Shown piece after piece: positions 49,280 through 50,007 of a stretch of 64,000 bases of DNA (position 1 is its first letter; the number at the start of each line of letters is the position of its first letter). The position numbers and the translations under genes were made by a program. The stretch is from Escherichia coli (GTDB lineage: Bacteria; Pseudomonadota; Gammaproteobacteria; Enterobacterales; Enterobacteriaceae). The DNA lies in assembly GCF_003334355.1 (NCBI RefSeq), contig NZ_QOWP01000005.1; one strand, 5' to 3'. Below the pieces are notes generated by a model. It worked only from the letters and a program-made list of their open reading frames with translations, did no database searches and had not been told where the DNA came from.

Positions 49280-49855
49280 TCAACGCCTGATAAGCGGTTG
49301 AACTTTGTTATCAATAGCTTCCCTCGCTCGGAAGATACGTGAACGCACCGTACCTACCGGACAATCCATGATAGCGGCTATCTCTTCATAGCTCAGGCCA
49401 TCCAGCTCCCGCAAGGTTATTGCCATGCGTAAATCTTCCGGGAGGGACTCAATAGTTCGGAAAACTATCTGTCTCAGTTCTTCTGACAACATTAAGTTCT
49501 CAGGGTTCGAAATTTCTTTCAACGCGCCGCCACTTTCGAAGTTTTCAGCTTCAATGGCATCCACATCACTGGAAGGTGGACGACGCCCCTGAGCAACCAG
49601 GTAATTTTTCGCTGTATTTACAGCAATCCGATACAGCCATGTATAAAAAGCGCTATCTCCCCGGAACGAATCCAGCGCACGATAGGCTTTAATAAAAGCT
49701 TCTTGTACCACATCGGGAACATCACCCGACGGCACATAGCGGGAAACCAGACTCGCCACTTTATGCTGATAGCGCACTACCAGTAAGTTAAAGGCTTTCT
49801 GATCTCCCTTCTGGACCCGTTCAACCAGGACCTGGTCCGTTAACTGCTCGCTCAT
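49280..49855 (-). CDS. rpoE: RNA polymerase sigma-E factor RpoE (191 aa)
   Basis: ORF 49280..49888 trimmed to MSEQLTDQVLVERVQKGDQKAF start (ATG complement 49853-49855). Confidence 0.97.
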   Translation of the reverse strand: MSEQLTDQVLVERVQKGDQKAFNLLVVRYQHKVASLVSRYVPSGDVPDVVQEAFIKAYRALDSFRGDSAFYTWLYRIAVNTAKNYLVAQGRRPPSSDVDAIEAENFESGGALKEISNPENLMLSEELRQIVFRTIESLPEDLRMAITLRELDGLSYEEIAAIMDCPVGTVRSRIFRAREAIDNKVQPLIRR

Positions 49856-50007
49856 CCGAGGTAAAGTCTCCCCAAACCAAATTTCCACGCGCTATCGAAA
49901 CGCCACTCCATTAGCTGCAATTTGAGCAAGCAAAGGATTAGAGTGTCTCGTTTTTGTAAAGTTCCGTAACGCATCTGTTTTTGTTTGTCATGCTGTAGAC
50001 GGATCAT
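49852..50007 (-). CDS. rseD: Upstream small ORF RseD (51 aa) translationally coupled to rpoE
   Basis: Minus-strand ORF ATG(50005-50007)...TGA(49852-49854) = MIRLQHDKQKQMRYGTLQKRDTLILCLLKLQLMEWRFDSAWKFGLGRLYLG; its TGA overlaps the rpoE ATG as ATGA. Confidence 0.7.
   Translation of the reverse strand: MIRLQHDKQKQMRYGTLQKRDTLILCLLKLQLMEWRFDSAWKFGLGRLYLG
49938..49965 (-). promoter_or_regulatory. Sigma-E-dependent rpoE promoter (GGAACTT-N16-TCTAA)
   Basis: Reverse complement ggaactttacaaaaacgagacactctaa matches the sigma-E consensus GGAACTT-N16-TCAAA. Confidence 0.7.

Follow-up and report, generated by a model that had tools for sequence, protein, structure and literature searches.

Short upstream ORFs (uORFs) whose stop codon overlaps the start of a regulator gene, or lies next to it, have been described in idlP-iraD and evgL-evgA. 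In both systems translation of the downstream stress regulator depends on that of the uORF, the regulator is under CsrA control and CsrA GGA sites are located in the leader. The rseD-rpoE junction of Escherichia coli resembles them in all these features. It differs in that, on rpoE, CsrA has been reported at the Shine-Dalgarno (SD) sequence and start codon of rpoE itself and not only at the uORF start, and in that a major promoter (the sigma-E promoter P6) lies inside rseD, so that one class of mRNAs bypasses the coupling. Since RpoE (sigma-E) is both an essential protein of E. coli and a toxic one in excess, each layer of control over its synthesis is important. rseD would be one of these layers, tying part of rpoE translation to a uORF on some of the transcripts and leaving out the autoregulated sigma-E transcript. 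The additions made here are modest: an ATGA junction imposed by the N-terminus of RpoE, an apparently unconstrained peptide, a narrow range of the ORF and candidate RNA structures at either end of the leader.

The 2017 study of this ORF reportedly named ORF51 rseD and found rpoE to be translationally coupled to it; rpoE translation is said to have gone down by more than 50% when the coupling was lost. In the literature the operon is given as rseD-rpoE-rseA-rseB-rseC and RseD is described as a leader peptide. Translation of rseD has been detected by PIRT-Seq and, as cited in the PIRT-Seq paper, by a chromosomal lacZ translational fusion (Yakhnin et al., 2017). CsrA binding sites have been found to overlap the SD and the start codon of rpoE, with three sites published.

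The window analyzed here is a stretch of 64,000 nucleotides from an E. coli contig (NZ_QOWP01000005.1). The elements that make up the junction are the following.

49852-50007, minus strand: rseD coding sequence, the rpoE leader ORF, with ATG at 50007 and 51 sense codons plus TGA.
49280-49855, minus strand: rpoE coding sequence (RefSeq annotation), 191 codons, with the annotated ATG at 49855.
49852-49855, minus strand: ATGA stop/start overlap of 4 nt, formed by the rpoE ATG (49855-49853) and the rseD TGA (49854-49852).
49868-49873, minus strand: SD sequence of rpoE, GGGGAG, 12 nt upstream of the ATG.

An initial annotation, made from the sequence alone, had recognized an unlisted small ORF of 51 codons upstream of rpoE, had described its TGA as overlapping the rpoE ATG in the form ATGA, and had identified it as rseD. 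It was correct on each count. The string ctcggATGAgc is found at the junction on the minus strand, and the ORF (50007 to 49852, minus strand; translation MIRLQHDKQKQMRYGTLQKRDTLILCLLKLQLMEWRFDSAWKFGLGRLYLG) is located as described for the RseD family, on the same strand as rpoE, directly 5' of it and with its stop overlapping the rpoE start. RefSeq labels exactly 49852-50007 as "rseD: rpoE leader peptide RseD" (WP_001325470.1) and gives the gene order rseD, rpoE, rseA, rseB, with nadB divergent upstream and, in its coordinates too, 4 nt shared by rseD and rpoE; by cluster look-up, the protein identical to the rpoE product is named RpoE. With the NCBIfam equivalog NF033697 (leader_RseD), a profile of 45 positions that covers residues 7-51, RseD scored 103 bits (cut-off 35, E = 7e-30). 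In position, in its length of 51 codons and in the ATGA shared with rpoE it agrees with rseD of E. coli K-12 (ORF51; NF033697) and is the same gene. The ORF is thus rseD, already published and annotated, and is not new.

We consider the ORF real because of the annotation, the family model, the maintenance of the frame across relatives and the published experiments, and not because of ORF statistics, since an open frame of 51 codons is ordinary, with many similar ones in the ORF list of the window. None of 5426 complete E. coli genomes lacks the 156-nt ORF, which is intact with an identity of 99% or more in 5388 of them and carried its annotation in all the rows sampled; the 571 bases around it had a match in the same 5426 of 5426, at an identity of at least 99% in 4303. 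In nearly all E. coli genomes the DNA of rseD is 99.4-100% identical. The cut-off of NF033697 was also passed by the frames of Citrobacter, Enterobacter sp. Ag1, Superficieibacter and even by Enterobacter frames devoid of an ATG, because the model largely scores conserved leader nucleotides. By inspection, no SD sequence precedes the rseD AUG; the GGGGAG of rpoE is invariant or nearly so in the alignment of Enterobacterales. A longer rpoE ORF with a GTG start, reaching 49888, was discarded as being only the mechanical longest ORF, the annotated ATG being that at 49855.

The initial annotation had also placed a sigma-E promoter, GGAACTT-N16-TCTAA, inside the ORF (49938-49965), and had reasoned that its transcripts would carry no intact rseD. 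The promoter is indeed there, and the second statement is borne out when the published start sites are mapped onto the window with the A of the rpoE start codon at 49855.

49938-49965, minus strand: sigma-E promoter rpoE P6 (formerly P2), with -35 GGAACTT (49965-49959), a 16-nt spacer and -10 TCTAA (49942-49938), within rseD codons 15-24.
49930-49931, minus strand: start of the P6 mRNA (about 49930), mapped from the published -75, at the third base of rseD codon 26; numbering within 1 nt.

A search for GGAACTT-N15-17-TCNAA gave one single match in the 64-kb window, at P6, against 0.09 expected from shuffles. All the parts of a sigma-E promoter (GGAACTT, a spacer of about 16 nt and TCNAA) are found at this place. 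Autoregulation of P6 by E-sigma-E and its start site at -75 have been published; the hexamers and start seen here show no difference from those of this known promoter. In the alignment, the element with its 16-nt spacer was kept in nearly all Enterobacterales loci and in many other gamma-proteobacteria, and its distance from rpoE is the same across Enterobacterales, Vibrio, Aeromonas and others. The location agrees with one review that describes the rpoE promoters as "upstream of, or within" rseD. The P6 start is 7 nt after TCTAA, giving an mRNA leader of ca. 75 nt without rseD codons 1-26. Since the start falls in codon 26, the sigma-E mRNAs lack the rseD start codon. A short in-frame ORF that could begin on these transcripts at Met33 (49911-49909) was rejected as a conserved feature, the ATG being present only in Escherichia, Citrobacter and Salmonella and having no SD.

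For the remaining promoters we used the P1-P6 start sites (-381, -327, -218, -153 and -75) as quoted in a review that cites Klein et al. (2016). The positions derived from this review, together with the hexamers that we assign to two of them, are listed below.

About 50236, minus strand: P1 start (-381), upstream of rseD.
About 50182, minus strand: start shared by P2 and P3 (-327), sigma-54/QseF and sigma-70/RcsB.
50073, minus strand: P4 start (-218), RpoS-type.
50080-50085, minus strand: TACTCT, candidate P4 -10, within the conserved block GTTACTCT.
50008, minus strand: P5 start (-153), an A located 1 nt 5' of the rseD AUG; numbering within 1 nt.
50016-50021, minus strand: perfect TATAAT, candidate P5 -10, with the P5 start 7 nt downstream.

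P1-P4 start upstream of rseD, and therefore their mRNAs carry the complete ORF. The P4 start is located just after the conserved GTTACTCT block. Around the TATAAT, the block ACTTATAATGA is conserved in the alignment of Enterobacteriaceae, and the P5 mRNA would begin with 5'-AAUG. A scan for the sigma-70 consensus gave no promoter in 49800-50300; the TATAAT promoter escaped it because the scan requires a good -35, which is absent there.

The junction and the long ORF have very different distributions. We compared 80 gamma-proteobacterial rpoE loci, to which Salmonella, Klebsiella pneumoniae and Citrobacter freundii were added later. ATGA was present at the rpoE start in 72 of 79 gamma-proteobacterial loci, including 40 of the 47 outside Enterobacterales, where the overlapping frame had a median open length of only 9 codons. 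It is nearly universal because RpoE begins with Met-Ser and its second codon is AGC or AGT. ATGA is not specific to rseD. The reading given in the initial annotation is supported, with the qualification that an ATGA imposed by the N-terminus of RpoE is by itself no evidence for coupling. A long ATG-initiated ORF was regular only in three genera, with 51 codons in Escherichia and 54 in both Salmonella and Citrobacter. The start codon of the 54-codon version is the ATG of TATAATG and differs from that of Escherichia, in which this ATG has been shifted out of frame by a 1-nt insertion and replaced by another, in frame, 10 nt downstream; the ORF has therefore survived a frameshifting change. Enterobacter sp. 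Ag1 has a 45-codon version, which accounts for the 45 positions of the NCBIfam profile. K. pneumoniae and the Enterobacter cloacae group have a TAA immediately 5' of the sigma-E -35 that closes the frame, and there are frame-shifting indels between the -10 and the GAGTGGCG block. Many other Enterobacterales have the same leader sequence with the frame closed or without ATG. These close relatives can therefore express rpoE without coupling to a long uORF. By protein homology search RseD had matches only in Escherichia, Shigella and Citrobacter, an under-report given the 54-codon version of Salmonella.

Of the three frames, that of rseD is by far the most often open. In 32 Enterobacterales loci its median open length was 38 codons, versus 18 and 14 in the other two, and it was open for at least 30 codons in 23 of the 32 loci, versus 8 and 4, figures to be read knowing that the loci are not phylogenetically independent and that some of the openness comes along with the conserved nucleotides of the leader. 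This bias argues against rseD being an incidental open frame in a dense regulatory leader (promoters, CsrA sites, SD), translated without meaningful effect on rpoE. The same can be said of the in-frame replacement of the start codon after the 1-nt indel in the Escherichia lineage, of the 5388 E. coli genomes with an intact and nearly identical ORF, and of the translation reported by two independent reporter methods. A decrease of rpoE translation by more than half in the absence of coupling, as is reported of the 2017 study, counts against it as well. An incidental frame would fit with a length of 51 codons that is not statistically unusual, with an ATGA that is forced by Met-Ser(AGC) and is found also in taxa without any uORF, with conservation that is seen at the level of nucleotides, with the close relatives that manage without a long ORF and with the lack of an SD before the rseD ATG. 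On balance we regard it as improbable for rseD, and for the genera with a closed frame it may still be the right description.

The peptide was examined by comparing E. coli, E. albertii, two Citrobacter species and Salmonella, which provided five distinct sequences with 27 variable sites. By codon position these sites were distributed 10:10:7 in rseD, versus 7:3:56 in rpoE from the same genomes. The mean pN/pS was ca. 0.9 for rseD, 0.86 and 0.63 for off-frame readings of the same bases and ca. 0.03 for rpoE. All three differences between E. coli and E. albertii in rseD were non-synonymous. The differing bases are concentrated in the spacer of the promoter, directly downstream of the -10 and downstream of GCTTGCTC, i.e., in non-critical segments of the leader. 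The residues of RseD that seem conserved (such as C-L-L and LGRxYLG) are encoded by GCTTGCTC and by the SD nucleotides, and these nucleotides show the same conservation in genera that lack the ORF. In this small sample of five sequences, neither codon positions nor pN/pS revealed purifying selection on the amino acids of RseD. The conservation of rseD, as read from these alignments, is that of regulatory DNA or RNA across which an ORF has been kept open, and it is probably the translation of rseD, rather than the peptide, that matters. The original rseD paper is said to have raised the possibility of a functional RseD protein. That RseD works in trans in envelope stress (for example on RpoE, RseA or a membrane partner), with the overlap serving only for co-expression, is the least credible reading and very unlikely: its translation is reported, the literature names it as a member of the rse operon and a CRISPRi screen lists rseD among the genes needed in urine (though CRISPRi on rseD is polar on rpoE), but against it stand the codon positions and a pN/pS equal to that of off-frame controls, the three non-synonymous differences out of three, the apparent residue conservation explained by nucleotides, an N-terminus and start codon that differ between Escherichia and Salmonella/Citrobacter, and an ORF that is absent or closed in K. 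pneumoniae and E. cloacae while the rest of the operon is conserved.

We are thus left, with considerable confidence, with rseD as a translated cis-acting leader ORF of rseD-rpoE-rseA-rseB-rseC, to whose translation part of the translation of rpoE is coupled. For this mechanism the anatomy, family, distribution and lack of amino acid constraint come from the present analysis, and rseD translation, start sites and CsrA binding from the literature. On mRNAs from P1-P4 (starts from -381 to -218), and possibly from P5, ribosomes would initiate at the SD-less AUG of rseD, cross the sigma-E promoter region and the ribosome-binding site of rpoE and terminate at the UGA of AUGA, where termination would deliver them to the rpoE AUG; part of rpoE translation would in this way be coupled to that of rseD. 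Translation of rseD probably also opens local structure that would mask the rpoE SD. In the predicted minimum free energy (MFE) fold GGGGAG (49873-49868; poorly spaced, at 12 nt) pairs with CCUCGGAU (49861-49854), including the CCUC just before the AUG, the stability of this fold being not significant (z = -0.83 versus shuffles). The mRNAs from P6, starting within codon 26, would leave rseD out and have rpoE translated by direct initiation at its own SD, which would be the step repressed by CsrA through GGA sites at the SD and AUG. Three such motifs, which would correspond to the published sites, are found downstream of the P6 start.

49886-49884, minus strand: GGA motif, candidate CsrA site.
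49871-49869, minus strand: GGA motif, candidate CsrA site, in the SD.
49857-49855, minus strand: GGA motif, candidate CsrA site, touching the ATG.

As expected of an initiation region repressed by CsrA, GGA motifs overlap both the SD (GGGGAG) and the start codon (cGGAtg) of rpoE.

Possible RNA structures were found at the two ends of the leader.

49993-50030, minus strand: inverted repeat with arms CTGTAGAC (50030-50023) and GTCTACAG (50000-49993) and a 22-nt loop.
49924-49931, minus strand: 5' end of the P6 mRNA, GCUUGCUC, complementary in the MFE fold to GAGCGAGC (49853-49846) by seven Watson-Crick pairs and one G-U.

Both the TATAAT box and the start codon of rseD lie between the arms of the inverted repeat, for which a hairpin is predicted in the fold of the E. 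coli RNA. Other lineages have at the same place different complementary arms (ACAGACT/AGTCTGT, AGCGGA/TCCGCT, AGCGGAA/TTCCGCT, CGCGAAA/TTTCGCG and CGTTTGCAGA/TTTGCGAACG). Shuffling each sequence gave P <= 0.01 in 12 of 17 sequences, and relative to other positions of the same intergenic regions the repeat had a median rank of ca. 0.04; in 4 of 20 lineages it was weak or absent, with a stem of only 4-5 bp indistinguishable from background. RNAalifold gave no consensus structure for the region of the repeat, in which the stems are marginal, with loops of 20-26 nt, and lie in different registers with respect to the -10 box, and no Rfam family was matched in 49700-50300 with a threshold as lax as E <= 1. 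An operator for a dimeric repressor is an unlikely explanation of the repeat, as the sequence of the half-sites changes between genera and the complementarity is kept.

At the other end, GAGCGAGC comprises the G of the rpoE AUG and codons 2-4 and was invariant in 32 of 32 Enterobacterales loci. Its partner GCUUGCUC was exact in 26 of the 32, including genera without the ORF, and had one mismatch in 4 more. From the predicted fold we hypothesize that the rpoE start and the 5' end of the P6 transcript may form base pairs, a pairing in which no covariation is possible.

A near-leaderless rseD is possible in Escherichia. As a general conserved mechanism, leaderless translation was rejected, since the ORF of Salmonella and Citrobacter is annotated as starting with the ATG of TATAATG, a codon that precedes the putative P5 start. 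Put together, these elements could form a three-way switch in which the choice of promoter sets rpoE translation, an idea that we offer only tentatively and think rather doubtful. Transcripts from P1-P4 would present the SD-less AUG of rseD in the AU-rich loop of the hairpin (50030-49993), with a stem varying between lineages, and would have full coupling. Those of P5 would start 1 nt before this AUG and rseD would be translated near-leaderless, and those of P6 would have no rseD and their invariant 5' end would pair with the AUG and codons 2-4 of rpoE, damping translation of the autoregulated transcript. Neither the hairpin nor the near-leaderless arrangement nor the pairing of 5' end and start codon was described in the secondary literature consulted, and the primary papers (Yakhnin, 2017; Klein, 2016) may already report any of them. 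The feature itself is already known and annotated, and these refinements and side observations are modest and in part conjectural.

A last detail concerns the allele. Compared to the commoner version of rseD, the window carries the minority Ile24 (ATC) instead of Thr24 (ACC), owing to a T/C difference at 49937, the first base 3' of the sigma-E -10.

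The published start site of P5 (-153), one of the rpoE promoters, maps to A50008 in the window (minus strand), 1 nt 5' of the rseD AUG, and a perfect TATAAT (within 50005-50021, minus strand) stands 7 nt ahead of it. Because of this single-nucleotide distance P5 mRNA would start with 5'-AAUG, which from the sequence would make it a near-leaderless rseD message. A second -10-like box, GATAAT (50011-50006, minus strand), overlaps the rseD AUG.

The rseD start codon is not the same in all genera. In Salmonella (L082-L084) and Citrobacter (L007, L086 and L087) the gene has 54 codons (positions about 1340-1504) and starts at the ATG within TATAATG. 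Escherichia carries a 1-nt insertion (window 50005-50019; GATAATGATCC versus GATAAGACC) that puts this ATG out of frame, leaving it at the head of a 9-codon ORF, and that creates the current in-frame rseD ATG. A further in-frame ATG is found downstream:

49972-49974, minus strand: rseD Met12.

ATG at codon 12 is confined to Escherichia, Salmonella and Citrobacter, the other genera having AGG. In Citrobacter amalonaticus, and also in a single assembly of C. freundii, the RseD annotated by NCBI begins at Met12 and has 40 aa. Met12 may be an alternative start.

The start region of rseD is itself enclosed by a repeat:

49993-50030, minus strand: inverted repeat around the conserved ACTTATAATGA box and the rseD start codon.

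Homologous repeats, with loops of 20-26 nt, were found at the equivalent positions of the rpoE loci L002-L018, L040, L082 and L086; K. pneumoniae, Superficieibacter, Pluralibacter and Enterobacter sp. R1 have only a weak repeat. The sequence of the arms varies by genus while their complementarity is kept, a pattern more suggestive of a hairpin in the RNA (or DNA) than of a protein operator.

Pairing can also be drawn between the rpoE start and the following element:

49924-49931, minus strand: GCUUGCUC, 5'-terminal in the sigma-E transcript.

This element is near-invariant among the Enterobacterales loci (exact in 26 of 32) and is complementary to GAGCGAGC (49846-49853, minus strand), which comprises the G of the rpoE AUG and codons 2-4. 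A predicted inner helix pairs the SD (GUUUGGGG) with CCUCGGAU, and it is possible that such pairing masks the rpoE start structurally. The ATGA at this start was present in 72 of 79 gamma-proteobacterial loci (L002-L081, locus position 1501-1504), a consequence of the Ser codon, AGC or AGT, in second position. Even loci that lack an upstream ORF, for example in Vibrio, Aeromonas and Shewanella, have this overlapping TGA.

Further upstream, the nadB-rpoE intergenic region contains another repeat:

about 50240-50257, plus strand: inverted repeat TGTTTAgtaaatTAAACA, upstream of nadB (ATG 50263).

It lies just ahead of the divergent nadB, close to the mapped P1 start of rpoE (-381, about 50236), and resembles a NadR operator (NAD box). 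In the same region one Salmonella assembly (L083, 1161-1340) has a called 59-aa ORF that abuts rseD upstream and gave no Pfam match.

The rseD allele of the window codes for Ile24 (ATC), a minority variant, most E. coli genomes having Thr24 (ACC; 99.4% match). The variable base, 49937, is the first nucleotide past the sigma-E -10 TCTAA, so that the change could affect P6, the autoregulated sigma-E promoter inside rseD, as well as the peptide. Rare frameshifted or fused variants, some extending into the rpoE frame, occur in E. coli/Shigella RseD entries of 1-2 members each (P0003, P0007, P0011, P0013 and P0014); sequencing error, and not true allelic variation, may account for them.
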